In this document: positions 44,761 through 60,233 of the stretch, piece by piece | How the letters are laid out: each line of letters opens with the position of its first letter | How positions within the stretch are numbered: the first letter of the stretch is position 1 | Source: Promethearchaeota archaeon | Lineage (GTDB): Archaea; Asgardarchaeota; Lokiarchaeia; Sigyniarchaeales; SOKP01 | Direction of reading: 5' to 3' | DNA length: 64,000 bases | Assembly: GCA_048940925.1 (NCBI GenBank) | Contig: JBHLOC010000027.1 | Location: forward strand, 1 to 64,000 | Translations under genes and position numbers: made by a program | The notes under the pieces: generated by a model | Told to the model about the DNA's origin: nothing | Seen by the model: the letters and a program-made list of their open reading frames with translations, nothing else | The model's database searches: none

Positions 44761-46146
44761 CTATTTGCTATTTTTGATAAATTTAATCATTTCCTCTGAA
44801 ATTTGATAGTTGGAAAGTACTAAATCTGCATATCCTTTCTCAGCAGCGAATTTAGGCATAGCATAAAGAATACTCGTTTGTTCAGATTCTGCGATTGTTT
44901 TTCCACCAACCTTTTTAATAGCATGTAATCCCTCAACGCCATCAGATCCCATTCCTGTTAGTAAAATTCCCAAACATCGATTCTTATAGAGTTTTGCTGC
45001 CGAAAAAAACAGGACATCAATAGAAGGCATACAAAAATTAACAGGTGAACCTTTTTTTAATTTAATACAAGGTGTTTTCTTTTCAACTGAAACTTCCATA
45101 TGCTTTTCTCCTGGAGCAATGTAACCTATTCCTGATTTAAGTATTTCTCCATGATTAGATACCTTAATCTTTAATTTACATTCTAAATCTAAATTTTCAG
45201 CGAAAGCATCTGTAAAATGAGAAGATAAGTGTTGCACTACTAAGATTGGAGCTGAAAAATCACTAGGAATATCTTTAAGAATAGTTGTAATTGTTCTAGG
45301 ACCACCCACACTGGCACCGATAACGATTATATTTGATATTAAGTTAACATTATTGTCGGAGGTAAATTCAGCAAAATTAGTTGATGTTAATTTGTGATCA
45401 GGAATTAAAGAGGTTGTTTTTAATGAACCTATATTCTCTAAAGTTGAGATTTTTTCAATATTATTTGGTATCGAGATAAGTTCTTGAGCTTTTTTTCGAT
45501 TTAAGTTCGATTTCCATTTTGAAATAGCATCTAATTTTGGTAAATTACCTTTTTTAGATTTTTCATTGAAAAATTCCTTTGGTTTTGCTTTAAAAGTAAA
45601 ATTATATTCATTTATCTTGTCAACTTCCTCAATAGGTTTTAATCGATTAAGATATTGACCAAAGTCAAAGATTTCATTAACAATTTCTTGTCTAATAGTA
45701 GTTTTTTTAGTTAAAGACTTTTTCTCTTTCCTAAAAATTCTTTTTATCTGTGATTGTGAAGCTAACAGAACCTTAGCAAGTAGCTCTTTTCGAAATCGTG
45801 GTAAATCTTTTGCTCCAATGCCTCCTGGTTTAATAATATAATCAAATGCTCCCATTAACAATGCTTGAACAGAAGAATCCAAGTTTTTTGGACTTATTGC
45901 TGAAAGTATAATTGTAGGCGTTGGATGGTCTTTCATAATAATTTTAAAAGCATCTAACCCATTCATCTTGGGCATAACTAAATCCAAAACTAAGACATCT
46001 GGTCTGTGTATTCTAATTAAATTAATAGTTTCTTTCCCATCTTTAGCAAAATCTACATTATTAATGAATTCATTTTTCTTGAGAATATCTGAGATACTCT
46101 TTCTTAAAAAAGCTGAATCATCGGCCACAAGAACATCAATATTCAA
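44761..46146 (-). CDS. cheB: Chemotaxis response regulator methylesterase CheB (long linker)
   Basis: REC domain (DD, DLVMP, KP) plus GASVGG, VQH, PSID, TGMGSDG, YAMP. Confidence 0.93.
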   Translation of the reverse strand: MNIDVLVADDSAFLRKSISDILKKNEFINNVDFAKDGKETINLIRIHRPDVLVLDLVMPKMNGLDAFKIIMKDHPTPTIILSAISPKNLDSSVQALLMGAFDYIIKPGGIGAKDLPRFRKELLAKVLLASQSQIKRIFRKEKKSLTKKTTIRQEIVNEIFDFGQYLNRLKPIEEVDKINEYNFTFKAKPKEFFNEKSKKGNLPKLDAISKWKSNLNRKKAQELISIPNNIEKISTLENIGSLKTTSLIPDHKLTSTNFAEFTSDNNVNLISNIIVIGASVGGPRTITTILKDIPSDFSAPILVVQHLSSHFTDAFAENLDLECKLKIKVSNHGEILKSGIGYIAPGEKHMEVSVEKKTPCIKLKKGSPVNFCMPSIDVLFFSAAKLYKNRCLGILLTGMGSDGVEGLHAIKKVGGKTIAESEQTSILYAMPKFAAEKGYADLVLSNYQISEEMIKFIKNSK

Positions 46147-46220
46147 TTAAGTCTCCCTTAAAACCATAATTAATTAATCCAATAAATAGTAGTGTAATGA
46201 AATTTATATCTTTCTTAAAG

Positions 46221-47171
46221 CTAAAATAAACTTGAAATAAGAAAAGTAAATAATTCATCAATTCCCTGTCCAGTGAGGGCAGATGTTTCAAAAAAGGGAA
46301 TATTATATTGTTTTGCTAAGTTTTGAGCTTTTAATTTAAAATTTCCGCGACTTTCAGCTAGATCTATTTTATTTCCTACAAGAACATGCGGAATAATTTT
46401 ATTTCCTAAATATGATTGTGATTCTTCAAACCAATCAGGTATTTTTTTTATGGTATCTATATTTGAATAATCAAATAACAATAAAACAGCATTTGAATAT
46501 TCATAGTAAAATCGTCGAATTTTGGCAAAATTCTTTAAACCACCTAAATCAAATAGGTATAATTTTAAATTGTAATCCTTTGAGATTTTTAATTTTTTCT
46601 CGAAAATTGTAATGCCAATAGTGGGGCTATAGATCTCGTTAAAAACACCCTTACAATACATCTCAGTTAACGTACTTTTACCTACTGTTTCAGATCCTAA
46701 AATTGTGATTGTTTTTACAATACTTTCATTAAATCTTCCGTTAGTTAAGATTAATTTTCCTTTTTCATTTAATTTTGGAATTTTCATTGCTGTCTCAATA
46801 TTATTTAAGATAAATGATATTTTCTGAGCAGTAATATAGACATATGGTATATATTTTTCAATATTTGAATAATGGTCTGCGATTAAGACAAAAATAGCAG
46901 GTGTTCTTCTACCCAGTTCCATATAAAAAAGTTGAAATTCATTAGTATCAAATGTTCCACTCCCAAACGAGGTTTCTGCATACCTCTTAATCTTACTTAT
47001 AGTTTGTTCTAAAATAGCCATAATAGCTCCAATTAATTCTTCATCAAATGCTTTTGTCGATTGACGCGCTATAATTAAACCGTCTAAATCTACAACTAAA
47101 GCTGCTAACAAATCTTGAATTTCATCTAACAAATTACCTAATAAATCTTCCAAAACTGTTAATTTAGACAT
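46221..47171 (-). CDS. Roadblock domain-Rab/Ras-like small GTPase fusion
   Basis: N-terminal LAALVVDLDGLIIA roadblock; G1 GSETVGKS, G2 PTIG, G3 DLGG, G4 NKID, G5 ETSAL. Confidence 0.88.
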   Translation of the reverse strand: MSKLTVLEDLLGNLLDEIQDLLAALVVDLDGLIIARQSTKAFDEELIGAIMAILEQTISKIKRYAETSFGSGTFDTNEFQLFYMELGRRTPAIFVLIADHYSNIEKYIPYVYITAQKISFILNNIETAMKIPKLNEKGKLILTNGRFNESIVKTITILGSETVGKSTLTEMYCKGVFNEIYSPTIGITIFEKKLKISKDYNLKLYLFDLGGLKNFAKIRRFYYEYSNAVLLLFDYSNIDTIKKIPDWFEESQSYLGNKIIPHVLVGNKIDLAESRGNFKLKAQNLAKQYNIPFFETSALTGQGIDELFTFLISSLF

Positions 47172-47247
47172 TTTTAATATTTTTTATTTCTCTTCTGTAA
47201 ATTCTTATTATTTTGATATTATCTCTTAAAATTTATACCTAAGATTA

Positions 47248-47931
47248 TTATAAATTCATACTGTATTTAATATTTAGAATTTCAAATAAATTCTTTAATA
47301 GATTCAAATTTGGTATAAGACAAATTACCCCGTTTAGTTTTATTTCTTTAACTTCCAACATTGTCTTAATTATTATAGAATAATCAGAAATTTGAGAATA
47401 TTTCGCTATAATGTAGTTTAGCATGGCATTTACATTATCAAGTGCAATCTGTGGAAAGGTGGGAATCAATTTAGTCGATAGTAAATCAGCTAAACTATTT
47501 GAATAATGACCAGCTAAAATACTTCCTATTTCTTTTATGATGCTGTGAGAAAATTCATCTAAATCGCTAAGTAGTTTTATTTTGTCAGCTGATAATTTTT
47601 CATATACCGTTAAATTATTTATTAAATTAATTATTGAATCCTTAGAGTAAACCTGAACTATTGTTAATTGAGATTCTTCATTAATATTTGAGATTATTCC
47701 AAATACATTATTTTTTTTGTTATTAAACAACTCAGGGATTTCCCAAAATGGAATGATATTTACTGATGTTAAAGATACTTCAACATTGTTATCTAGTAAT
47801 TTTGAAAGAGCTGTAATAGCATGCCCCGAACCTATATTTCCTAGCTCTTTTAATAAATCAAGTTGCTCTGGAGTTAGTTCTACATCTACATAATTCTTTA
47901 TATCATTTTTATTTTTTCTCATTTTTCTCAT
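47248..47931 (-). CDS. cheC: CheY-P phosphatase CheC
   Basis: DLLKELGNIGSGHAITALS; second site EIGSILAG. Confidence 0.88.
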   Translation of the reverse strand: MRKMRKNKNDIKNYVDVELTPEQLDLLKELGNIGSGHAITALSKLLDNNVEVSLTSVNIIPFWEIPELFNNKKNNVFGIISNINEESQLTIVQVYSKDSIINLINNLTVYEKLSADKIKLLSDLDEFSHSIIKEIGSILAGHYSNSLADLLSTKLIPTFPQIALDNVNAMLNYIIAKYSQISDYSIIIKTMLEVKEIKLNGVICLIPNLNLLKNLFEILNIKYSMNL

Positions 47932-47947
47932 TTTTTAGAAATTTTTA

Positions 47948-48487
47948 TTAAAGTTTTTTAAACTCACTTTCTCCGCTTGATCTTACTAAAACGGAATAAT
48001 TATGTGTGTTAAATATAATTACTCTTCCAGAGGAGCCACCTAAATCTTCATTTACAATTTTAATATCTGATTTTTTTAATTCTCTTTTTACGACTTCAAT
48101 ATTATTAGTGCCAATTATATTCTCATCTAAATCGAAAATTTTAGACCCTCCAACGATAATTGCTCTTATATTTTCAATTTTAGCTCCATGTGAAATCAGT
48201 TCATTCTTTAATAATTGTACTGACAGATCAGCATATTTATGAGGATAGTTTATTTTTTTCTTCGTATCTGCTTTTGGGAGTAAAATATGAGACATAGCAC
48301 CGACTTTATTATTCTTATCATACAGGATAAGAGCAATACAAGAACCTAATCCGTAAATTGAAATTTTAATATGCACATTAGATGATTTGTATTTACTATT
48401 GACTAGTGCATAGTGGCCTATTGGAAGGATAATTACACCATCTCTTCCAGTTTTTTCTATACGGCCAATTTGTTCTTCTTCACTCAC
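47948..48487 (-). CDS. cheD: Chemoreceptor glutamine deamidase CheD
   Basis: GLGSCI, HILLP, KYAD, GGSKIF, IG..N, EDLGG.SGR. Confidence 0.92.
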   Translation of the reverse strand: MSEEEQIGRIEKTGRDGVIILPIGHYALVNSKYKSSNVHIKISIYGLGSCIALILYDKNNKVGAMSHILLPKADTKKKINYPHKYADLSVQLLKNELISHGAKIENIRAIIVGGSKIFDLDENIIGTNNIEVVKRELKKSDIKIVNEDLGGSSGRVIIFNTHNYSVLVRSSGESEFKKL

Positions 48488-48513
48488 TTTTTAATATTCC
48501 TTTTCATAAATTA

Positions 48514-49653
48514 TTAATTATTCGTGTTTATTGTAAACTTAGAACTAAATTTCATCATATAATCTTTAATTTTATAATTGGGACATACTATTTGGGCAGC
48601 TCCTCTTTTTATTGCCGCTTTAGGCATACCATATACTACACAAGTTTGTTCTGCTTCAGCAATAGTTTTTCCTCCTTCATTTTTGATAGATTCAAGACCT
48701 GCAGCACCATCATCCCCCAATCCAGTTAAAAGGATCCCCAAAACTTGCTTTTTACATGTTTCTGCGGCTGACAAGAATAAAATATCAACAGATGGCATAC
48801 AGAAATTGACTGGTTCTCCTTTAAATATTTTAATATGTGGAGTATTGTTTCTCACAATTATTTTCATATGTTTTCCTCCAGGACTAAGATACGCTTTTCC
48901 AGGAATAATTTCTTCACCATTAACTGGTATTTTTACTTCGATCTTGCAAATATTATTTAATGATTTTGCAAGTTCTTTCATGAAAAAAGAATTTAAATGT
49001 TGAACAATAAGTATTGGGCAAGGAAAGTCTTTAGGTATATCTTTTAGAATTGATTTTAGCGTTCGAGGTCCACCAGTACTAGTTCCTATTACTATAATAT
49101 TAAGTTTGATTTTAGGTATTGATGGCTTACTTAAAACAGTTGATTTTGCTGAATCCAATGATACGCTAATCCTACTTGGATGATGAGTTGATTGTATTTC
49201 TGATTGAAGATCTACTGATTTTTTTATTAAATCTGTACGCTTTTCATATGTTTTTTTAATTTTAGCCGCATATAAAATACTTGAAATTAGTTTTTTTTTA
49301 AACTTCGGAAATTCTTCTTTCCAATATCCCTGTGGTTTTAAGATAAAATCGAATGCTCCTAAAAGTAGAGCTTGAACAGAATCATCTAACGATCGAGGAT
49401 TAAGTCCTGTAAATACAATTGTCGGAACGGGGTAATGTTCCGACAGAAATTTAAGGACAGAGATCCCATCAACTTCCGGCATTATAAGATCTAATAAAAG
49501 TACATCAGGATTATGTTTCCCAATTTTTTGAATTGCCTCTCGTCCATTTCGTGCAGTATCAACCACTTCGATATTTTGGTGAGATGAGATCATTTCTGTT
49601 ATTACTTTTCTTTGATAACTAGAATCTTCAGCAAGTATCACCTTAATTAACAT
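48514..49653 (-). CDS. cheB: Chemotaxis response regulator methylesterase CheB
   Basis: REC domain (DLIMP) plus GTSTGGP, VQH, PSVD, TGLGDDG, YGMP. Confidence 0.93.
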   Translation of the reverse strand: MLIKVILAEDSSYQRKVITEMISSHQNIEVVDTARNGREAIQKIGKHNPDVLLLDLIMPEVDGISVLKFLSEHYPVPTIVFTGLNPRSLDDSVQALLLGAFDFILKPQGYWKEEFPKFKKKLISSILYAAKIKKTYEKRTDLIKKSVDLQSEIQSTHHPSRISVSLDSAKSTVLSKPSIPKIKLNIIVIGTSTGGPRTLKSILKDIPKDFPCPILIVQHLNSFFMKELAKSLNNICKIEVKIPVNGEEIIPGKAYLSPGGKHMKIIVRNNTPHIKIFKGEPVNFCMPSVDILFLSAAETCKKQVLGILLTGLGDDGAAGLESIKNEGGKTIAEAEQTCVVYGMPKAAIKRGAAQIVCPNYKIKDYMMKFSSKFTINTNN

Positions 49654-49665
49654 TAGAATTTCACC

Positions 49666-50730
49666 TTATCCTGTCTTTAGATAGATTTGATTCCGAGAAT
49701 CAATTAATTTTAAAGATTTATGAGTATTAAATATAGATTCTGTTTTACCTAATATTAGCAAACCTCCAGTTGCTAACTCTTTTTCGATGATTTCTAAAAA
49801 TCTAATTCGTGCTTTTCGGCTAATATAAATTAGGAGATATCTACAAAAGATAATATCATATTTTATGGATTTCTTGTGACCTTTTGTAAGATCTTCTTCT
49901 ATAAATTCAACATAATTTTTAATCTTGTTACTAACTGAAAATTTATCTCGAAAATATCCGTGGATTTTAGTAAAATAATTAAGTATAAACAAATTTGAAA
50001 CTTCATTTAAAGCACTTTCATTATATATACCTATATTTGCTCTATTAAGTGCATCCTTATCTATATCTGAAGCAATAATTTTAAATTGGGGTAAATAAGA
50101 TATTTGTCTTTTTAAGTTATCTAAAACCATTGCTATTGAAAACGGTTCTTCACCAGATGCACAGGGACATGACCAAATATGTATAATATTATTAGAATCT
50201 GATTGTGTCCATACTTTTCTATAAATTGATGTTTTTTTGATAAATGATAAAGCTAGCTGAGAATTTGAAAATTTTATGTGTCTATATTTATCATCGTTTA
50301 TTGATGTATTTTTATATAAAACTTCTGTTTCTATTTTGTTGTTAGTTTTTCTTTTTGAATTCGGCTCCATATCACTTATTATAGCTTTTCTATCAAGATT
50401 TAAAGTTTTTAAGAAGAAGTTTTCAAATTGTTTAAATACTTCCCAATTTCTAAAGAAACAAGAATAATTAATATTAAAACTATCTAGAAATTTTTGAATT
50501 TCTAAGGGATTATCTTTTATATAATAATAATATGAATGAAGCGTGGAACAGTTAACACGGATCATTCGAGCTTTTATTCTACGCTTAACAAAGTTATCAC
50601 GATAATATCCAAAATCCAAATTTGTTTCATGACTTAGAAAATCAAGTAAAAGATTATAATAGTCTTCATCAAATGTAATATTTTCAATCCTTATCACATG
50701 AAACACTTTATTTTTCGAGAATTTTTTCAA
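49666..50730 (-). CDS. cheR: Chemotaxis methyltransferase CheR (with insertion)
   Basis: VKRRI..RM, FFRN, IWSCPCASGEEPFS, ASDID, DIIFCR.LLIY, LILGKTES. Confidence 0.9.
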   Translation of the reverse strand: MKKFSKNKVFHVIRIENITFDEDYYNLLLDFLSHETNLDFGYYRDNFVKRRIKARMIRVNCSTLHSYYYYIKDNPLEIQKFLDSFNINYSCFFRNWEVFKQFENFFLKTLNLDRKAIISDMEPNSKRKTNNKIETEVLYKNTSINDDKYRHIKFSNSQLALSFIKKTSIYRKVWTQSDSNNIIHIWSCPCASGEEPFSIAMVLDNLKRQISYLPQFKIIASDIDKDALNRANIGIYNESALNEVSNLFILNYFTKIHGYFRDKFSVSNKIKNYVEFIEEDLTKGHKKSIKYDIIFCRYLLIYISRKARIRFLEIIEKELATGGLLILGKTESIFNTHKSLKLIDSRNQIYLKTG

Positions 50731-51262
50731 TTTCAGTAAAGCGTTGTTGAATATGGTCCATAGTGTATTTAATATGTTGCTGCATTTCCTTAATTTCCGA
50801 TAAAATTTTTTTTATTTGAGATTTCTGTATTTTTGCTAAAAATCTTTCTCCTACAAGAGAAGATATTTGATGAGTTTTATCTATTGTTACACTTGGGATT
50901 TTGACTTCTGAAATTTCAGTCTGAGTTATATTATTTCTAGATTCTCCTGGATAACTCAAGTGAAATCTATTTTCTTTTATTTCTTGAAAAATAATATTAA
51001 ATTCAGAGGGTTCAATTCCTTGTTTAATAACTTCATATTTAAAATTATAGAATTTTTTTTTAGTTTTTAGCTTTCCTGCCCAATTCGCGGCCATATAACG
51101 GTGAAATAAACGTGAGTTACTACCCGACCAAATCCAGATTAATTTGAAGTCCTTATCAATAATTAAATAAACTCCATTAGGTTCAAACATCTTTTCAGGT
51201 TTCCCCTTTATTGTTTCGCCATCTACTTTAAAAATGTATTCAAAATACTCACTTTTTAACAT
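50708..51262 (-). CDS. Gelsolin-like domain protein with C-terminal coiled coil
   Basis: GVYLIIDKDFKLIWIWSGSNS...A..WA...YEVIKQGIEPSEF matches the gelsolin repeat consensus. Confidence 0.78.
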   Translation of the reverse strand: MLKSEYFEYIFKVDGETIKGKPEKMFEPNGVYLIIDKDFKLIWIWSGSNSRLFHRYMAANWAGKLKTKKKFYNFKYEVIKQGIEPSEFNIIFQEIKENRFHLSYPGESRNNITQTEISEVKIPSVTIDKTHQISSLVGERFLAKIQKSQIKKILSEIKEMQQHIKYTMDHIQQRFTEIEKILEK

Positions 51263-51356
51263 TTTTTAAATTTTAACCTCTATTCGATGTCTTTAATAAC
51301 CTTTAGAATCTAAAAAAGTACTCATAGTAGAAAAGTTTTGAATTTCGCAAAAAAAA

Positions 51357-53315
51357 TTAAGAGTAAAATTTTAAAAGTGCATCAAGTAATTCTTGTAGGG
51401 TATTAAGATTTGGAATGAATAAGAATGTTCCTTGAACTTTAATATCAGTGATAATTACGTTTGTGGTGATTACTAGCGATAATTTTCTAAGCAATCCAAT
51501 TTCTTCTTTTAATATGCTAAATAATTGCTGTCCAGTATCAACTGACATGTCTGGAGGCTCTGTCATAAGCCGTATTCCAAGTAGATCACCTATAGCACTA
51601 ACATAATGACTTCCGAGAATATGTCCTAATTCGGAAAGAGCACTTCTATAAAGTTCTGGATAATCATCAGCTTTATCAATTTTCTTCCTCAAATCGATCT
51701 TCTTTTTATCTTTATCATCAACTATTATTGATGTAATATCAATTGAATCTTTTACATTGAATATCGTAAGTACTGTAGCTCTTGTTTTCCCAATAACGTT
51801 ACTCCATGCGACTAATAATTTTTCATTCTTTTTACTTATCTTTTGAGCATATTCATCTAATTCAACCATCTCTACTGATGGTATATTTATATCAACTCTT
51901 TTATTAATCATCTGAGCTAATGCATTTGCTGCGTTTCCAGCTCCAATATTTCCAACTTCTTGTAAGGCATCTCTTTGAAGTTCCGTAAGCACTATTGAAC
52001 TAACATCTAATTTATCAGCTGATTTCTCAGACTTATCTTCCATAAATGCTATTTCATGATGAATACCCAATTTATTGAAAAAAGATTTTAATGTTTCAAG
52101 GTCTGGTATAAAGAAGAAGAAACCTTGCAATTGTAATTCAGAGACTTTTATAGACGTTTTAATTATTATCATATATTCAGCTAATGATTTTAATTCTTGA
52201 GATAGAAATTCCCCTAATTCTGCAGTATTACTCATAGCAAATTCTGGTATATCAATCATAATTTTTGTCCCTAATAAATCTGCTAAAGCAGAAGCATAAT
52301 GCCCTGCCATTATGTTTCCCATTTCTGTTATTGTTGAAATAGCAAATTCATCAAGGTCCTTTTTAGACTTAACTTTATTAGGATCTATTTTTGATTGATT
52401 TCCTGCTAACGTTGCTATTAGATTCATTAAGGGTTTCATTTCAAAAATATTGAGAATAGTAGATTGGGAAGGTTTGTCTATATGACAAAAAATACCGCAT
52501 ACTCGTTCATTAGAATTCCCAAATTGCATTGATAATTTATTTAGAGATACAATTCCAACATCAGTTAAGGTCACATCTATTTTTTTCTTTATGAGTCGAG
52601 ATAGTGCTGTAACTGCATTTCCAGTTCCAATATTTCCAATCTCTTGAAGTATATCTTTTTGATCATCAGTTAAGACAATTTTTTTCTCGGAAGTTGAAGT
52701 TTTCTTCTTGGTAATTTTCACTTTTTTAGGTGTAATAACAGTTGATTCTATGTCATGAATCACTTGTTTTTTAGGTATCACTTTTGGGCGTTCCAGAATC
52801 TTAGGTTTTAGAATATTTTTCTCTACTTGTATTTCGAAAGATTTAATATAGGGTTGGATTAAAGCATCTAAATCTAGCAAGATAAGTGGTTCGTCTTGAA
52901 ATATCCCTGTTAGTTTTATAAATTTAAAATCTATGTTTGTTTTTACAATCGTTCCTTGTGCTTTAAAAATTGAAATTGGAAACTCTCTCACACCAATTAC
53001 AGAATCAACTAATAAAGCAATTTTTAAATTTTCCCATTCTAAGAGTAGAATACGTGATTTTTCATCTAAAGCATATTCTATATCATTACTATAAATATTG
53101 TGTTTAAGTGAGATAATTGAATAAATATCTCCTCTGATATTTATAATCCCTACAATTGATTTATCTGCTAACGGTACTGGAACTATTTTTTCTCCAGGTA
53201 CAAAAATCTCTTTAACCTTTTCAACCTCAATAAGATATTTTTCATCTTGTACCTGTATTATAACAGTTGATATATTTTCTTCAAATTCTATTTTTTCATA
53301 TTCACTATTTAACAT
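51357..53315 (-). CDS. CheW-CheC-CheC fusion protein
   Basis: CheW (VPVPLA...GIINIRGDI...ALLVDSV) then two CheC domains (EIGNIGTG/EMGNIMAG; EVGNIGAG/ELGHILGS). Confidence 0.88.
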   Translation of the reverse strand: MLNSEYEKIEFEENISTVIIQVQDEKYLIEVEKVKEIFVPGEKIVPVPLADKSIVGIINIRGDIYSIISLKHNIYSNDIEYALDEKSRILLLEWENLKIALLVDSVIGVREFPISIFKAQGTIVKTNIDFKFIKLTGIFQDEPLILLDLDALIQPYIKSFEIQVEKNILKPKILERPKVIPKKQVIHDIESTVITPKKVKITKKKTSTSEKKIVLTDDQKDILQEIGNIGTGNAVTALSRLIKKKIDVTLTDVGIVSLNKLSMQFGNSNERVCGIFCHIDKPSQSTILNIFEMKPLMNLIATLAGNQSKIDPNKVKSKKDLDEFAISTITEMGNIMAGHYASALADLLGTKIMIDIPEFAMSNTAELGEFLSQELKSLAEYMIIIKTSIKVSELQLQGFFFFIPDLETLKSFFNKLGIHHEIAFMEDKSEKSADKLDVSSIVLTELQRDALQEVGNIGAGNAANALAQMINKRVDINIPSVEMVELDEYAQKISKKNEKLLVAWSNVIGKTRATVLTIFNVKDSIDITSIIVDDKDKKKIDLRKKIDKADDYPELYRSALSELGHILGSHYVSAIGDLLGIRLMTEPPDMSVDTGQQLFSILKEEIGLLRKLSLVITTNVIITDIKVQGTFLFIPNLNTLQELLDALLKFYS

Positions 53316-53351
53316 TATAATATCCTCTGTTTAACTCATTACAAAATTTTT

Positions 53352-54191
53352 TTATTTTATCATTATACCTTTCCAAATTAATTCTACATCAGTTTCATCT
53401 TCAGTTGCTCCAATAAAGAAATCTGATTGTTTAAAGATTAATATTTGTCCTCCATTTGAATACTTGTAGACATAGTTTAGTAAATCATCCATACTTGTAT
53501 AATTAAATCCTGCAAGTTTTAATTCTGAATTATCTACAATTATTAGATCTTCTTTATTAAAAACGCGATTTTCTTCTATCCATTCAATCCATAATTCTGG
53601 AGTTATTTCAGTGTTAATTATCTTATAACTTTCATCTAATGGTATATTTCGAAAAGATTTATTAGCAGCTATTATAATCCTATGTGGTATAGTATTCTGT
53701 TTTTTTGCGAATTCTGCCATATCTTTTAATGATTGATTAAAATTATCTAATTCGAGAGTATCATGACAAGAAATGAAAATTGTTTCATTTTCTTCAGTTT
53801 CTAGTATAAAATCAAAAAATTTAGCAGAATTGTTATTTTGGTTTACCTTCATAGATTTAATAGTTATACCTAAATAATATTTAATATATTGATAAAATCG
53901 CCATTTAACAGCTAATCTATGATTTATTTCTCTACTAATAAATATCTGGAACAATGTTTTTAGGTCAATTTCATTTAATTTTGATATATCCGCCAATTTA
54001 CCTTTATCTTTGCCAATTTCGAGAAATTTATCATTGGTAGTTGATTTTGAGTTTTTAACAGGTTTCGTTTTAATTTCATCTAAGAATTTGTTTAATTCAT
54101 TATAAGTGAATTGTGGCAAGATTTGATCAACCAAATATGAAACATACTTCTTCGATTTATCATCCAACGTTTCAAAAAACTGTAAATTCAT
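53352..54191 (-). CDS. Hypothetical protein in che operon
   Basis: 279 aa, GGAGG RBS, co-oriented within the operon. Confidence 0.65.
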   Translation of the reverse strand: MNLQFFETLDDKSKKYVSYLVDQILPQFTYNELNKFLDEIKTKPVKNSKSTTNDKFLEIGKDKGKLADISKLNEIDLKTLFQIFISREINHRLAVKWRFYQYIKYYLGITIKSMKVNQNNNSAKFFDFILETEENETIFISCHDTLELDNFNQSLKDMAEFAKKQNTIPHRIIIAANKSFRNIPLDESYKIINTEITPELWIEWIEENRVFNKEDLIIVDNSELKLAGFNYTSMDDLLNYVYKYSNGGQILIFKQSDFFIGATEDETDVELIWKGIMIK

Positions 54192-54246
54192 TCTATTTCC
54201 TCCTATAATTTTTCTTTTTTCGATTTAATTATAATTTTGTTCTGAA

Positions 54247-56262
54247 TTATCCAATAAAAAAGGATTCTAACTCTGAATATTTTACATCTTTTCCGGTAAT
54301 ATTTTTTAGATAATACATTACTTCCTTTTCTTGAAAGGGTAATAAAGTTTCAATTGTGAAGAATATTTTACGTTCTCCAGATTTATCTGCTTTGCTTAAC
54401 TTATGATCGATATTTGAAGAGACAAGTTCAAATGAGTCTGGGAAAGAATCAGTTAAATCAACATTATTAAGTTTAATATTTGAACCATTTCTTGCAGTAA
54501 TATAAATTGCAAATTCATTGCTAGTCCTCCCTGGAAATATTTCCTTTCCAATCATTAGCTTACGACGTTTATGAGTAATTTTTAGTTTAGAGGCATCTTT
54601 CATATCTAAATTGGTGGTAATTATATAATACTCATTAGATTTTACATCTAAATATTTAGGATAATATGTCTGAACATCCAATGGAAATTTATAATCTTTA
54701 TTGGGATCAGGAGTAATAGCGTTAAGTGAATATCGGACCTCTAAAAAGTCATCAACATTTATCAATGATTTACTATTATAATTCTTCAAATTAACTCTTA
54801 GTTCTAAAAGATGTTCACTAGATGGATCAATATCATCTGGATTAACATTTATTATAAAGTCTTCAAATTTTACTTCTCCTGAAGAATTAAATAATTTGTA
54901 TTTTGAAATCTCTTTTGAAGGCAAAAAATCTTCCGGTATTCTCTCTTGGACAATTATTCCTTTTACCGGAACTGCACCCATGTTCTTTATTACAATTTTT
55001 ACATCAATTTCAGATTGCTCATATGATTTTACCTCTTTCTCTGAAAGTTCCTTTTTTATTAAAACACTTACGGTTCTAAAGAGAGTATCATCAAAATGAG
55101 CAGTAATCAAACAGTTTTTTTCAACCTTATAATCTACAGAATATTCTACTTTCCTTGAAAATGAAGGCTCTTTTTCATCTACATAATCAAATTTTTGTGT
55201 TATATAATTTTCTTGGGGATGAATTATCAATTTTTCACCAGAACCATTAAAATTCAAGCTTAATAGAGTATTTTTCTTATTCTTATCTAAAATTAAAATT
55301 GATTTCATTATCATCTTAAAATCACTATGATTTTCAAAATAGAGAGAGCAATCCCAATGATTAGGAGAGTGATCTTTCTCCATTTTTTTTATTGCATGCA
55401 ATGCATGAGAATATGCTGAAAAGCGTTCAATTTCTACTTCAGATAAAGTTTGATTCTTCAAATTAAATGATAATTCAATTTTCCCTGTTCTTATATTCTC
55501 TCTCTTTTTTGGAAAAATCTTGCTTATTATTGATATTTCTCTTTTTTCTCCAGGATTCAAATTATTAATAGAACATTCAACTGTGTTGCTTGTAATAATA
55601 AAATCCTTATTATCATTACCCTCAAATTCTAAATCATAAAGATATTTAGAAATATACTTTTTTAGGGTTATGTTTTCTAAAAATGACGTTGAAACATTTT
55701 CTACAAAAATTGAGAACTTAATCTTATTTTCTTTACCAAGTAAAAGAATTTGATGTTTTTGATTTCCATCATTAATAAAGAGAGATCCATCTGGGCTATC
55801 TCCAAATGATTTAATATCCTCATTTAAGTTCTCAATATTTTCCTCTATTTTTATTAAATCAGGGAGCATTTCTGAATTTACCATTTCATATTTCAAAATT
55901 TTATTTGAATTTGGTTCAAAGATACCTAAGTTTACATCTTTTTCTGAGTTTTTATCATCAAATTGTGTGCCTGAAAATTGTAAAAATGCATCCCAAATTC
56001 TATCTTTAAGTGAATTATTATAAATTATTATGTTACCATATCCAGTTATAGAAGATCTCTTCTTATCATATTGATATTTATATTCTAAAAATTCTTCATT
56101 AGCAATCAATATTTCTGAGATTGAGCTTATTACATTTTTTCCTATTTTTAAATCTCTTTTACTAGTTTCTATTACTTTTCCTGTTTCCCTTATTGGCATA
56201 CCAAGGAAATTGACTCCAATTTCAGTTTTTAACTCATCTTGGTTAACTTTTTTAAAACCCAT
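54247..56262 (-). CDS. Cytoplasmic multi-beta-sandwich protein (putative mu-homology domain plus DUF11-like Ig domains)
   Basis: 671 aa, no signal peptide; repeated I.N......I.V.(E/D).IP..F units. Confidence 0.6.
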   Translation of the reverse strand: MGFKKVNQDELKTEIGVNFLGMPIRETGKVIETSKRDLKIGKNVISSISEILIANEEFLEYKYQYDKKRSSITGYGNIIIYNNSLKDRIWDAFLQFSGTQFDDKNSEKDVNLGIFEPNSNKILKYEMVNSEMLPDLIKIEENIENLNEDIKSFGDSPDGSLFINDGNQKHQILLLGKENKIKFSIFVENVSTSFLENITLKKYISKYLYDLEFEGNDNKDFIITSNTVECSINNLNPGEKREISIISKIFPKKRENIRTGKIELSFNLKNQTLSEVEIERFSAYSHALHAIKKMEKDHSPNHWDCSLYFENHSDFKMIMKSILILDKNKKNTLLSLNFNGSGEKLIIHPQENYITQKFDYVDEKEPSFSRKVEYSVDYKVEKNCLITAHFDDTLFRTVSVLIKKELSEKEVKSYEQSEIDVKIVIKNMGAVPVKGIIVQERIPEDFLPSKEISKYKLFNSSGEVKFEDFIINVNPDDIDPSSEHLLELRVNLKNYNSKSLINVDDFLEVRYSLNAITPDPNKDYKFPLDVQTYYPKYLDVKSNEYYIITTNLDMKDASKLKITHKRRKLMIGKEIFPGRTSNEFAIYITARNGSNIKLNNVDLTDSFPDSFELVSSNIDHKLSKADKSGERKIFFTIETLLPFQEKEVMYYLKNITGKDVKYSELESFFIG

Positions 56263-56331
56263 TTCAATTTTCCTCCAAATTTTATTTAAACAGCAAATTT
56301 TTTCTTATTTTTAAAAAATATTTAATTAACT

Positions 56332-58368
56332 TTATTGTGAAATTTCACCTTCTAGTAATTGTTTTGATATGATATTGAGCACATCAAGGATCAAACAAAT
56401 TTCACCAGAACCAGTGATAGCAGATCCTAAAATATTTCGAGAATCTGAATAGCTTGATTTAAATGGTTTAACTACTAAGTCTAGTTGTTGAAGTTGTTTA
56501 TCTGCTACTAAAACTGCCGAATTCTCATTATCTTTTTGACACCATACAGCAACTTTCTTATATGAATTAGTTTCATTTATATCAACCATTTGTAAGTGTT
56601 GATCCAAATGAATAAGAGGGAGTAATTTTGAATTAATTTTGTAATATTGTATCCCTTCATTGTATTCGACTAAATTTGGATTGAAAAAGTATATTTGCTT
56701 GATATTTTCAATGGGTATAGCAAATAAATCTTCTGAAATTTGAAGTAATTGAGCTCTCAAAATAGCCCTTGTAAATGGAACAATCAATGTAAATTTAGTC
56801 CCAACGTCTTTTTGTGAGGTGATGAGTAAATCTCCTCCTAATTCTTTTATTTTTTCAGCAACAATAGCTAATCCTATCCCTCTACCTGATATAATATCAG
56901 CATCTGAGAGAGTCGAAAAACCAGACATTAGTATATATTTATTCAATTCATCCGGTGTTAGCTCTTCGATTTGATTAGCGTCAAAATATCTCTTATTACG
57001 GATTTTTTGTTTTATTTTATCATAATTTATACCTGCACCATCATCTTCTATCTCTATGTGAATAGAACCTGCTTTCCTATATGTTTTTATTCTTAAAATT
57101 CCAAGTTCATTTTTACCTTTCCTTTTCCTTTCTTCTGGTGTTTCTATCCCATGGTAAATAGCATTTCTAATAAGATGAACTAACGGGGAATTTAATTCCT
57201 CTAATATTTTTCTATCAATTTCAACATTAGTGCCTTGTAGAACTAATTTAATTTGTTTACCTGTTTCATTCGCAACATCTCGTACAAATCGTTTATATTT
57301 TCTAAATGTAGATTCTACACGCACTAATTTTAATCTAAATAGTATTTCTTGAATGTCGAGATAGGGTTTATCCATTTTATCAAAAAGTCTACCAATAACG
57401 CGATCTTGTTTTTCTTTTAATAATTGACTAATTTGATTTTTTAATATTACCAGTTCTCCAAAATAATTCATTAATTCCTCTAAATATTCAATATTAACTT
57501 TTACACTTGTTATTTTAGTCCCATCCTCAGAATAGTCTTCAACTATTTGAGAGACCCTCTCTACTTCTTCATCGATTAAATCTTCCTCAAAATCTTGCTC
57601 TTTATCCCATTTCTCTTTTAGATTGTTAATTGTGCTTTTAAATTCCTCAGGATTTAAAATTGTAATCACAATACTTTCAATTTCTAATATTTCATCTAAA
57701 ATATGTGATATTTGTTGTTTTTGTTGGTCACTAATAAAATATATCTCGAATTCATTCTTCAAAATTGCTCTCTCTAATGATTCTGGGGCAGGAGTTGTCC
57801 AACAAATCTTACCCCTCTCATTTAATGCCCTAAAAATAATAAACAATCTTACTTTCTTAAATACACAAGTTTCCTCCAATCGAATATAAATTTTATATGG
57901 TTTGTTTTGTCTATTACTGAGAATTTCTGTAATTTCTTCAAGAGTTATTGGTTTAATAAATGTAATATCATAACTATCTGTATCAAAACTCTCAAAACTC
58001 CTTTTTATCTCTTCTAAAAATTTAGTGTCAATATCTTTTAAATCTCCTTTTTTGACCTTCTTTAAAACATTTTTAAGGACATCAAGACTCTCAAATAACA
58101 TATCTATAAAGTCAGTTCGTTTTCCAATTGAAACTTTATTGTCTTTCGCATTTTCTAAAAAAGATTCAAAATGATGACAGAACTTTGATAAATTTTCAAA
58201 ACCCGCCATAGCAGTAAGACCTTTTAGAGTATGGAATGTGAAAAAAAGTTCCTGAATTGGTTTAGGATTTTCCGTATTTTCTTCTAATTTAAGAATTTCA
58301 TCCTCAGTTTTTTGAATAAGATCCTCTGCTTCACTAATAAAAAGCTTAATATCGTCATATGAGGCCAT
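56332..58368 (-). CDS. cheA: Chemotaxis histidine kinase CheA
   Basis: P1 FHTLKG, P2, P3 LMNYFGELVI, P4 HLIRNAIYHGIE/DDGAG/GFST/SGRGIGL, P5. Confidence 0.96.
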   Translation of the reverse strand: MASYDDIKLFISEAEDLIQKTEDEILKLEENTENPKPIQELFFTFHTLKGLTAMAGFENLSKFCHHFESFLENAKDNKVSIGKRTDFIDMLFESLDVLKNVLKKVKKGDLKDIDTKFLEEIKRSFESFDTDSYDITFIKPITLEEITEILSNRQNKPYKIYIRLEETCVFKKVRLFIIFRALNERGKICWTTPAPESLERAILKNEFEIYFISDQQKQQISHILDEILEIESIVITILNPEEFKSTINNLKEKWDKEQDFEEDLIDEEVERVSQIVEDYSEDGTKITSVKVNIEYLEELMNYFGELVILKNQISQLLKEKQDRVIGRLFDKMDKPYLDIQEILFRLKLVRVESTFRKYKRFVRDVANETGKQIKLVLQGTNVEIDRKILEELNSPLVHLIRNAIYHGIETPEERKRKGKNELGILRIKTYRKAGSIHIEIEDDGAGINYDKIKQKIRNKRYFDANQIEELTPDELNKYILMSGFSTLSDADIISGRGIGLAIVAEKIKELGGDLLITSQKDVGTKFTLIVPFTRAILRAQLLQISEDLFAIPIENIKQIYFFNPNLVEYNEGIQYYKINSKLLPLIHLDQHLQMVDINETNSYKKVAVWCQKDNENSAVLVADKQLQQLDLVVKPFKSSYSDSRNILGSAITGSGEICLILDVLNIISKQLLEGEISQ

Positions 58369-58395
58369 AAAATCACCATAATGTTTAGTTTATGA

Positions 58396-58791
58396 TTATT
58401 TCTTATCGATTTTTTTATTTTTCAGTATGCGATCCATGACCTCTAAAATTTGTTCAGTCTTGAAGGGTTTTTGAATAAAATCTTTTGCCCCTTTTTTCGC
58501 TGCTTCAAGCACTAAAGCTTCTTGTCCTAAGGCTGATACCACAACTATCAAAGCTTTAGGATTAATCTTTAGAATCTCTTCTGTCGCCTCAATACCGCCT
58601 TTTTTAGGCATAACCAAATCCATAGTAACTAAATCTGGGTTTAGTTTCTTGTATAAAGATATTGCTTCGACACCGTTTGAAGCTTCACCAATTATTTCGA
58701 CCTTCTCGACTTTACTTATAATATTTTTAAGCATATTTCTTGTGAAGGCTGCATCGTCAACTATAAGGACACGTTTCTTTTCATTTGTCAT
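58396..58791 (-). CDS. cheY: Chemotaxis response regulator CheY
   Basis: VDDAAF, PDLVTMDLVMP, SALGQ, GAKDFIQKPF. Confidence 0.93.
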   Translation of the reverse strand: MTNEKKRVLIVDDAAFTRNMLKNIISKVEKVEIIGEASNGVEAISLYKKLNPDLVTMDLVMPKKGGIEATEEILKINPKALIVVVSALGQEALVLEAAKKGAKDFIQKPFKTEQILEVMDRILKNKKIDKK

Positions 58792-58858
58792 ATTTTCAAC
58801 TCCAATTTGTTTTTGTTTAAAATTTTTTAATATTTTTTTTTATTTTTTAGATTTAATT

Positions 58859-59392
58859 TTATGTTAGAGATGACATTTCTTGTTGAATTTTAAATTTTTC
58901 AACCTCACTCAATACTTTGCTTAAATCAAGCATAATTTTGGGTCGATCTTCGAAGTTTATAATACCTTTGATATATTCCATAGCAACACTAGTCTGAAAG
59001 ATAGGACTTAAATCAACAATTTCATTCGCATCAATGTGATCTATATTCATAATACGATCCACATAAAATCCGACTAAAGTATTCTCAACTTTTAGAATTA
59101 TTATAAATTTCTTACTTGCACTAAATACTTCTTCTGAAGAGGATTTTTTTGCGCTATACAAAACATATTCATTCAAGTCCAATTTCTTTTTTAAATTGAC
59201 TACATGAATGATTTCTCCTCTGTAATTATAGATCCCATCTATATAATCTAAACTTTTAGGCAATTTTCGTATTTGTCCCGCTTGTATTATTTCTTTTACA
59301 TCAACAAGGTCAATTACAAATTGTTCCCATCCAATTTGGAATATAATTATAGAAATTTGATTTCTATCTTTGAAATCTTTGCCTTGAATCAT
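58859..59392 (-). CDS. cheW: Chemotaxis coupling protein CheW
   Basis: VKEII, LP...YIDGIYNYRGEII.VVNL, GFYVDRI, YIKGII. Confidence 0.92.
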   Translation of the reverse strand: MIQGKDFKDRNQISIIIFQIGWEQFVIDLVDVKEIIQAGQIRKLPKSLDYIDGIYNYRGEIIHVVNLKKKLDLNEYVLYSAKKSSSEEVFSASKKFIIILKVENTLVGFYVDRIMNIDHIDANEIVDLSPIFQTSVAMEYIKGIINFEDRPKIMLDLSKVLSEVEKFKIQQEMSSLT

Positions 59393-59411
59393 ATTCTACA
59401 TACCCTTTTTC

Positions 59412-60233
59412 TTATATTATAAAATATTGGTTAATTATTTCTTCAAAATTAGAAAATGGTGTTATATCACCATTGAAATTTTTTAAAAGATCTTTATAAC
59501 TGAATAAAAATTCATCTGCTAAGAGATACATATATCTTTGAATTAAAAAATTCATTTTTTCCACTAAGAAAGCAAATATCACATGGTTTTTAGTAATAAC
59601 ATAGAATTGTTGATTTCCAAAATTAATTTCTTTGAGTTTTGCCCCAGTTTCTTCCCCAATGATCGTATTCGAGAATGATAATAAGGCAGAGATAAACCCT
59701 CCGATATGTACCTCATGATCCTGTATATTTGAACGCTTTTTATTTATCATTGAAACAAATGGACTCCCTGTGGACCCAATAATAAAAATAGCAATAACTC
59801 CCTCTGTTTTAGGTATCTCAATTGCCGAATTAAATTCATATATTATATTATTTAGTGATTCATGGGATTGAAATTTCTTGTTTATATCTTTTGATAAGAA
59901 ATATAATTGTGAGAAATTTACTGAATTTTCTTTTTTTTCCATATAAATTATAACTAATATATCATGATTAGAATGTTCAAAATAATGAAGGAAGATTGTC
60001 ATATCATTGAGAGGAATTATTGAGTTTCCTTGTTTTTTGGATATTATCTCTTTCTTATAAAGTTCCATAATATTCTGAACCAATGGAATACCTATTCCTT
60101 TCTGAAAAAGTACTTTGAAACTTTCATTAATATTATTTTCTGAAATCCTAACCAAACCTATGCCCAAAATTTGCATTAATCTGGTGTTTTCTTTAGAATT
60201 ATGAAAGTTTTCCATAATCATCATTAACTTCAT
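59412..60233 (-). CDS. Longin-like domain protein, first gene of the che operon
   Basis: C-terminal IFIIGSTGSPF...IGGFISALLSFS...LKEINFG...IFAFLV...F...Y pattern typical of archaeal longin domains. Confidence 0.65.
   Translation of the reverse strand: MKLMMIMENFHNSKENTRLMQILGIGLVRISENNINESFKVLFQKGIGIPLVQNIMELYKKEIISKKQGNSIIPLNDMTIFLHYFEHSNHDILVIIYMEKKENSVNFSQLYFLSKDINKKFQSHESLNNIIYEFNSAIEIPKTEGVIAIFIIGSTGSPFVSMINKKRSNIQDHEVHIGGFISALLSFSNTIIGEETGAKLKEINFGNQQFYVITKNHVIFAFLVEKMNFLIQRYMYLLADEFLFSYKDLLKNFNGDITPFSNFEEIINQYFII

Follow-up and report, generated by a model that had tools for sequence, protein, structure and literature searches.

The Frz chemosensory system of Myxococcus xanthus is a CheA-type pathway that drives no rotary motor, and it controls the Ras-superfamily GTPase MglA and the roadblock protein MglB through response regulators (PMC13408092). 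The conservons of actinobacteria consist of the sensor kinase-like CvnA, the roadblock protein CvnB, CvnC and the GTPase CvnD, and genetically couple a histidine-kinase-type sensor to a roadblock protein and a small GTPase (PMC13343842). Roadblock-GTPase architectures of Asgard archaea have been catalogued in Prometheoarchaeum MK-D1, in which the two domain orders, RB-GTPase and GTPase-RB, differ in switch II (Tran et al. 2024, PMC10933270). The GTPase genes of MK-D1 are generally not located in operons with regulators (PMC10933270). Furthermore, an Asgard archaeon has been described with putative chemoreceptor arrays and che genes, whose output was not settled (PMC9834061). Both Asgard roadblock-GTPase fusions (PMC10933270) and che genes of Lokiarchaeia (PMC9834061) are already known. 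A full-text literature search, with most subscription journals outside its scope, found no link between a small GTPase and an Asgard che cluster. The gene described here encodes a roadblock-GTPase fusion within such a cluster. It is located on contig JBHLOC010000027.1 of a Promethearchaeota archaeon from the class Lokiarchaeia (assembly GCA_048940925.1), and the whole stretch that was analysed, positions 1 to 64,000 of this contig, is referred to as the window.

The original prediction described the open reading frame at 46221-47171 as a roadblock domain fused to a small GTPase and placed it inside a che operon. The frame was found intact, both domains were recovered, and the gene is flanked by cheC (47248-47931) and a second cheB (44761-46146) as part of a cluster of 14 co-oriented genes. 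Read from 60233 to 44761, the cluster encodes p273, CheW, CheY, CheA, a DUF11-like protein, p279, a CheW-CheC-CheC fusion, p184, CheR, CheB1, CheD, CheC, the roadblock-GTPase and CheB2. The identical gene order was found in many genomes. The gene product is predicted to be a cytosolic, non-lipidated GTP-binding switch dedicated to a chemosensory system specific to Lokiarchaeia.

The family, which is restricted to Asgard archaea of the Lokiarchaeia type, comprises approximately 170 homologues with 47-78% identity, and all source names shown are Asgard (Promethearchaeota, Lokiarchaeia, Thor-, Hod- and Hermodarchaeota). Phylogenetically it forms a single long-branched clade that also includes two nested groups of longer members (430-500 aa). 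This clade is separate from the seven other roadblock-GTPase fusions of the window genome, which encodes eight in total. The nearest relatives of the G domain are other Asgard roadblock-GTPase paralogues, not MglA. Together with the Rab/Ras-like character of this domain, this agrees with the earlier proposal that the switch was assembled independently.

Ten short-form members were picked across the clade, and all ten lie among che genes, as do three further loci from other families or small contigs (G129, G282 and G148). A survey of 28 Asgard loci, based on one genome per GTDB species, revealed adjacent che genes on the same strand in 27, the exception being a contig-end fragment. A general lack of che linkage among orthologues would have counted against the original prediction; instead, linkage was found in these 27 loci and in every locus inspected by hand. 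It persists across three operon arrangements and after several rearrangements, among proteins that share 43-78% identity. The first arrangement is the full operon as in the window. In the second, the short operon, p184 or CheR precedes the GTPase, and CheB, CheD and CheC are not adjacent. In the third, the GTPase-CheB2 pair stands apart (L005, L007, L056, L059 and L061); in G151 and G163 some 20 kb separate it from the core operon. Across genomes, the identity of the GTPase tracks that of the core Che proteins, and the intergenic gaps to its che neighbours are as small as 6 nt.

Gene distribution was analysed in the GTDB family of the window genome (family f1), which comprises 135 genomes. Operon-type CheA is encoded in 45 of them and the short form of the GTPase in 31, all of which are CheA-positive, and none of the 90 CheA-negative genomes contains the short form. 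Co-occurrence of the GTPase and CheA was also observed in two genomes from other families of the class. A sister-family genome (6.0 Mb) has three che loci of another type, with CheA 27-30% identical, and no roadblock-GTPase was found in any of them.

A che linkage common to all roadblock-GTPases was considered and ruled out, as the seven paralogues are encoded elsewhere in the genome and the long form examined is not che-linked. This long-form paralogue (G000:C30:99938-101299; L017 7939-9300) has 453 aa, shares about 50% identity in the roadblock domain, carries DLSSL in switch II and has a C-terminal extension of about 120 aa. The long-form paralogue of the window genome is not near che genes, and long forms also occur in CheA-negative genomes. 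A separate observation concerns three loci from distant lineages (L005 1-10960, L007 1-10939 and L018 10001-20945), in which the GTPase is located beside an LCIB_C_CA-type carbonic-anhydrase-like gene and an A/V-type ATPase operon. The proximity to the ATPase probably reflects inherited gene order, yet it is reminiscent of Rag and V-ATPase.

The G domain matches the Pfam family Ras (PF00071) with an expectation (E) value of 1.1e-33 and 116.6 bits, compared with a curated cut-off of 21.6, and the matches to Roc and Arf are far weaker. Gtr1_RagA (PF04670) does not match the window protein and matches some homologues weakly. In a phmmer search against PDB, the closest solved sequence relatives are Rab39B, Rab23, Rab30 and Rab21 (E about 1e-24), followed by KRas, and MglA is not among the best 60. 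Foldseek analysis of the full-length model likewise retrieved Rab and Ras, with template modelling (TM) scores of 0.8-0.86 by target, in a list dominated by Rab/Ras proteins and artificial LOV2-Rac1 fusions. As to a relationship with Rab, it can only be said that Rab proteins are the top sequence matches in PDB. The C-terminal cysteine prenylation motif of the Rab family is absent, as had been claimed: the C-terminal residues are SSLF, and Cys is lacking from the last five positions in 105 of 111 short-form relatives.

All five nucleotide-binding motifs are present, namely G1 (GSETVGKS, 159-166), G2 (T184), G3 (DLGG, 208-211), G4 (NKID, 267-270) and G5 (ETSAL, 295-299). Residues were counted in 118 family members aligned to the profile. 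The P-loop Gly, Lys and Ser/Thr, Thr184, Asp208, Gly211, the Asn, Lys and Asp of G4, and Ser297 are invariant or nearly so. Specifically, D57 and N116 occur in 117 of the 118 members each, the Lys and Asp of G4 in all of them and the Ala of G5 in 108. Because the nucleotide-binding and switch residues are this well preserved, the G domain is, judged by its sequence, a genuine guanine-nucleotide switch rather than a degenerate pseudo-GTPase.

The claim that all G boxes are present holds for the motifs, with the qualification that the catalytic positions are altered throughout the family. A Leu follows DxxG in place of the catalytic Gln, and a Glu occupies the position of Gly12. At the Gln61-equivalent, Gln occurs in none of the 118 members (Leu 82, Ile 21, Ser 6, Phe 3, others), and the residue is hydrophobic in 108. 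Similarly, Gly is never found at the Gly12-equivalent (Glu 90, Asp 12, others). The window genome encodes at least 67 Ras-like small GTPases, with Gln in 39, Glu in 17 and Leu in four at the Gln61 position. Since 39 of 67 retain Gln, its loss is specific to this GTPase lineage. In the Ras paradigm, changes at Gln61 and at Gly12 both cripple intrinsic and GTPase-activating protein (GAP)-assisted hydrolysis. With both Ras-type catalytic residues replaced, the protein does not appear to be an ordinary self-regulating GTPase/GAP pair. From the residue pattern we infer that nucleotide is bound, and that the protein either stays GTP-bound or draws a catalytic residue from elsewhere, as in GTPases with a hydrophobic residue at the Gln61 position.

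The N-terminal domain of the window protein scores 18.1-20.1 bits against Robl_LC7 (PF03259), under the curated cut-off of 23. A search of PDB sequences with the roadblock profile gave CvnB5 as the sole, weak match (E 0.33). Owing to the weak profile match, a fold search was needed to settle the identity of the domain. Among aligned N-domains of the family, 29 of 29 match Robl_LC7 at E up to 0.1, the best at 1.8e-7. In silico modelling of the N-domain alone with AlphaFold gave a predicted local distance difference test (pLDDT) score of 86 and the element order α-β-β-α-β-β-β-α, which is that of a roadblock fold. A Foldseek search of this model against PDB yielded 91 matches at E up to 1e-3, the top nine being Thermus thermophilus MglB chains with TM 0.66-0.71. 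The leading MglB structures are 3t1s, 1j3w and 3t12 (TM 0.69-0.71, E 3e-6 to 1e-5), and MglA-bound MglB is included. These are followed by the C-terminal domains of RagA and RagC, roadblock proteins of MK-D1 and Thorarchaeota, MglB and MglC of Myxococcus xanthus, and LAMTOR subunits. The suggested link to MglB is supported insofar as T. thermophilus MglB is closest to the predicted fold.

The roadblock domain has a mean column identity of 69% and is conserved at least as well as the G domain. Within the loop ETSFGSGTFDTNEF, G70, G72, T73 and T76 show almost no variation, and residue 77 is Asn in 102 and Asp in 14 of the 118 members; the loop is presumably functional. Five full-length AlphaFold models reached mean pLDDT values of 85, 66, 57, 52 and 49, and the best has a predicted TM score of 0.85. 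The pLDDT falls to 64 in the linker near aa 141-150. An independent ESM Atlas model, that of a 542-aa paralogue cluster, could be superposed on the two domains simultaneously (TM 0.81 over 307 residues), which suggests that the packing of the roadblock domain against the G domain is fixed.

The genome to which the window belongs (100% complete, 8.4% contamination) contains four genes for methyl-accepting chemotaxis proteins (MCPs). Archaellin (PF01917), CheF (PF04283) and the T2SSF platform protein (PF00482) have no match in this genome, and control genomes matched each search. Archaellin and CheF were likewise not found in five other operon-bearing genomes, again with positive controls. CheF, archaellin and ArlJ/T2SSF, the proteins by which an archaellar output is recognised, are missing from the window genome, and the usual archaeal output is therefore not detectable. 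Two matches to the T2SSE family were considered as parts of a pilus system and rejected. One is a PIN-domain ATPase; the second is a solitary ATPase encoded close to the end of a contig, with ribosomal protein genes after it.

It is tentatively proposed, with a probability somewhat short of even, that the protein is a GTP switch with MglA/MglB-Frz-like logic within a single chain, put together independently from Asgard components. The G domain would rest in the GTP state because intrinsic hydrolysis would be slow. By analogy with MglB and the C-terminal domains of Rag proteins, the roadblock domain could dimerise the protein, sit on the switch regions, or both, and in this way would control the nucleotide state in cis or between the subunits of a dimer. 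Receiver (REC) domains phosphorylated by CheA, either CheY or that of CheB2, would bias this state. The GTP form would then recruit a non-motor effector, for which the gelsolin-domain protein p184 is the first candidate, and if p184 is the effector, the switch would act on the actin cytoskeleton.

A profile built from p184 orthologues found solved gelsolins of Asgard archaea (7c2f, E 1.1e-7) as well as 2DGel, villin and CapG. Pfam Gelsolin matches seven of eleven orthologues, and a structure search in the Atlas gave TM 0.52. All full and short che operons surveyed encode a gelsolin domain of this actin-regulator type, and the 3' end of the p184 gene overlaps cheR. Among the proteins encoded in the operon, p184 is the best effector candidate. 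A more specific form of the proposal combines a Lokiarchaeia-type Che system without rotary-motor output with a hydrolysis-impaired roadblock-GTPase and a gelsolin-domain protein, which would signal to actin and steer protrusion growth or polarity. This form is considered unlikely. The analogy with MglA/MglB and Frz as such is plausible.

Several observations weigh against the proposed GTP switch. One confident full-length AlphaFold model was obtained out of five. Without Gln61 and Gly12 the protein may never cycle, and the G domain is Rab-like and not MglA-like. The closest neighbour of the GTPase is the adaptation enzyme CheB2, not CheY. Furthermore, 14 of the 45 CheA-positive f1 genomes, several of them incomplete, show no short-form orthologue. 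The GTPase gene is missing from the otherwise intact operons of G207 (100% complete) and G191, where CheC is directly followed by CheB2. In G184 its absence was deduced from the spacing between CheB1 and CheB2, which leaves no room for it. As three genomes have lost it while the rest of the operon remains intact, the GTPase cannot be the sole output. A role as core output is ruled out by these operons, and the GTPase is an accessory, dispensable member of the che cluster.

An accessory function in adaptation is possible, albeit somewhat unlikely. In this case the GTPase would not be an output. It would dock, localise or gate CheB2, and demethylation, and with it adaptation or memory, would depend on the GTP state. 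CheB2, in which the REC Asp and the Ser-His-Asp triad are intact, is the most constant neighbour of the GTPase. It is encoded directly downstream in 20 of the 28 species-level loci, and the pair stays joined in the five loci where it is split from the core operon. Short-operon genomes have no adaptation genes in the operon and still keep one long CheB (510-566 aa), which directly follows the GTPase in G275. CheB2 also carries a specific linker motif, RQxxVxxxFxFGxYLNxL (RQEIVNEIFDFGQYLNRLKP in the window; 45634-45693, minus strand), which 10 of 11 long CheB proteins contain and CheB1 lacks. However, CheB2 and its linker motif persist in L021, an operon without the GTPase, and the motif is for this reason not clearly tied to the GTPase. 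In addition, six loci lack an adjacent CheB2, with the GTPase following the gelsolin-domain gene in five and CheR in one (L057, L060, L063-L065), and no CheB is known to need an NTPase.

Placement or assembly of chemoreceptor arrays is a decidedly unlikely alternative. In this case the GTPase, as an NTPase encoded in the operon, would serve to position or partition arrays in a cell that is large and branched. The ParA-like proteins ParC and PpfA of bacterial che clusters would be its functional counterparts. The protein is indeed a P-loop NTPase encoded in the operon and accessory rather than essential, and roadblock domains typically serve for dimerisation and as platforms. In an Asgard cell, arrays were found to be rare and localised (PMC9834061). 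Homology to ParA or MinD is nevertheless lacking, neither a membrane anchor nor an amphipathic terminal helix is evident, and array positioning is not known for small Ras-like GTPases.

It is highly improbable that the protein is an ordinary Asgard trafficking or Rag-like GTPase whose che position is inherited gene order without a functional tie. This reading is favoured by the abundance of small GTPases and roadblock fusions in the genome, the nested long-form paralogues outside che clusters and the three loci near an A/V-type ATPase operon. Against it speak the persistence of the linkage at 43-78% protein identity despite three operon arrangements and repeated rearrangement, the confinement of the short form to CheA-positive genomes (31 of 31, compared with 0 of 90) and the narrow gaps to che neighbours.

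Further proteins of the cluster provide additional context. The p273 gene is conserved upstream of cheW in nine genomes. The C-terminal half of its product shows weak hints of a longin or roadblock domain, with 0.83 in the Atlas, Fuz_longin_1 in two of nine orthologues (E 0.013), dynein roadblock (E 0.5-0.8) and hhalign (E 0.19). No PDB sequence matches p279. The DUF11/CLIPPER-like protein, which has about 1040-1240 aa in other lineages, and p279 are encoded downstream of cheA in every operon surveyed. The CheW-CheC-CheC fusion is kept in every full or short operon surveyed and is absent from loci that contain only the GTPase-CheB2 pair or lie on truncated contigs.

Some variation was observed among the adaptation genes. 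In L005, the alignment suggests a second, degenerate copy of the CheB2 linker motif. The operon CheR is absent or a remnant in the GTPase-less operons of G207 and G191, both of which encode a diverged CheR elsewhere in the genome, and no CheR was found in G184 (76% complete). A diverged CheR, about 45% identical, is present elsewhere in the genomes tested (G191, G207, G199 and G212). CheR remnants include one of 62 aa in L004 (7399-7587) and a 73-aa open frame in G191 (G191:C3:45519-45683).

The window has 25-34% G+C per 2-kb segment, mostly 25-32%, and is AT-rich and archaeal; it also contains genes for aEF-2 and aCPSF1. The coordinates of the features are listed in Table 1.

Table 1. Features of the roadblock-GTPase and its che cluster in the window.
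Feature	Position	Strand	Evidence or remark
Co-oriented cluster, 14 genes	44761-60233	-	spans p273 to CheB2
p273, 273 aa, first gene of the cluster	59412-60233	-	upstream of cheW
DUF11/CLIPPER-like protein, 671 aa	54247-56262	-	downstream of cheA
p279, 279 aa, no family detectable	53352-54191	-	downstream of cheA
CheW-CheC-CheC fusion, 652 aa	51357-53315	-	Pfam
p184, 184 aa, single gelsolin domain and C-terminal coiled coil	50708-51262	-	orthologue profile; core operon member
CheC, directly upstream of the GTPase	47248-47931	-	Pfam CheC, E 1.6e-14
Roadblock-GTPase open reading frame (P0001)	46221-47171	-	intact, 316 aa; ATG at 47171, TAG at 46221-46223
N-terminal roadblock domain, aa 1-122	46806-47171	-	AlphaFold model, Foldseek, Robl_LC7
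Most conserved roadblock loop ETSFGSGTFDTNEF, aa 66-79	46935-46976	-	alignments, residue counts
Variable linker, aa 123-150	46722-46805	-	low conservation, variable length in alignment
Rab/Ras-like G domain, aa 151-316	46224-46721	-	Pfam Ras, PDB phmmer, Foldseek
P-loop GSETVGKS, aa 159-166; Glu161 is the Gly12-equivalent	46674-46697	-	translation of the open reading frame
Switch II DLGGL, aa 208-212; Leu212 is the Gln61-equivalent	46536-46550	-	translation of the open reading frame
G4 motif NKID, aa 267-270, guanine specificity	46362-46373	-	residue counts, 118 relatives
CheB2, 461 aa: REC, Lys-rich linker of about 165 aa and CheB methylesterase domain	44761-46146	-	Pfam

Amid the dozens of small GTPases encoded by Asgard archaea, this subfamily has a genomic context that names a pathway. 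It comes with concrete candidate partners, namely CheY, CheB2, CheA/CheW, the gelsolin-domain protein and a possible longin/roadblock protein. Chemoreceptors and a complete Che kinase module are encoded in the host, with no detectable archaellum, CheF or type IV filament platform, and the roadblock-GTPase is a prime candidate for the missing connection. If the connection to actin were real, a prokaryotic two-component chemosensor would be wired to a eukaryote-style arm of small GTPase and actin effector in the closest archaeal relatives of eukaryotes. The coupling of gradient sensing to a GTPase-controlled cytoskeleton, a hallmark of eukaryotic chemotaxis, would then have an archaeal counterpart. 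On a conservative reading, the protein is a new accessory component of chemosensory systems and a natural Ras-like switch without Gln61 and Gly12, whose built-in roadblock domain is suited to mechanistic study.

In comparison with known systems, the locus resembles MglA/MglB and Frz in that a Ras-superfamily GTPase is paired with a roadblock regulator, and the N-domain is structurally nearest to MglB. The tie to a CheA-type pathway that drives no rotary motor is shared as well and is suggested here by gene linkage. In contrast to the bacterial system, both domains form one polypeptide encoded in the che cluster. MglA and MglB are two distinct proteins whose genes, to our knowledge, lie outside the frz operon. 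The G domain differs too, being Rab/Ras-like and devoid of the catalytic Gln, while MglA keeps its own catalytic Gln and an intrinsic Arg finger. Finally, neither type IV pilus nor gliding machinery was detected in the window genome.

Rag/Gtr GTPases with Ragulator are similar in combining G and roadblock domains in one chain, and the C-terminal domains of RagA and RagC rank high among the structures that the N-domain fold matches. However, the domain order is reversed here, Gtr1_RagA is unmatched, and the locus contains no second Rag-like gene. Conservons differ in using separate polypeptides without CheA/CheW/MCP machinery, and they belong to a different domain of life. The HAS-GTPases (Era, EngA, MnmE and FeoB types), which are related to TRAFAC translation factors, have a hydrophobic residue in place of the catalytic Gln. 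The family described here shares this feature at the Gln61 position, from which hydrolysis would be expected either to use a residue supplied from elsewhere or to be very slow. Its G domain is nonetheless Rab/Ras-like by sequence and fold.

The RB-GTPases of MK-D1 have the same domain order, roadblock then GTPase, and come from the same phylum, and the protein shows this Asgard RB-GTPase architecture. The catalogue of MK-D1 gives no functional context, whereas the subfamily described here is defined by che linkage and by the loss of Gln61 and Gly12. Since the protein combines a Ras-superfamily G domain with a roadblock fold and has neither the prenylation motif of Rab, the G domain of MglA nor the domain order of Rag, it is assigned by sequence to a separate, che-dedicated subfamily of Asgard roadblock-GTPases that lacks Gln61 and Gly12.

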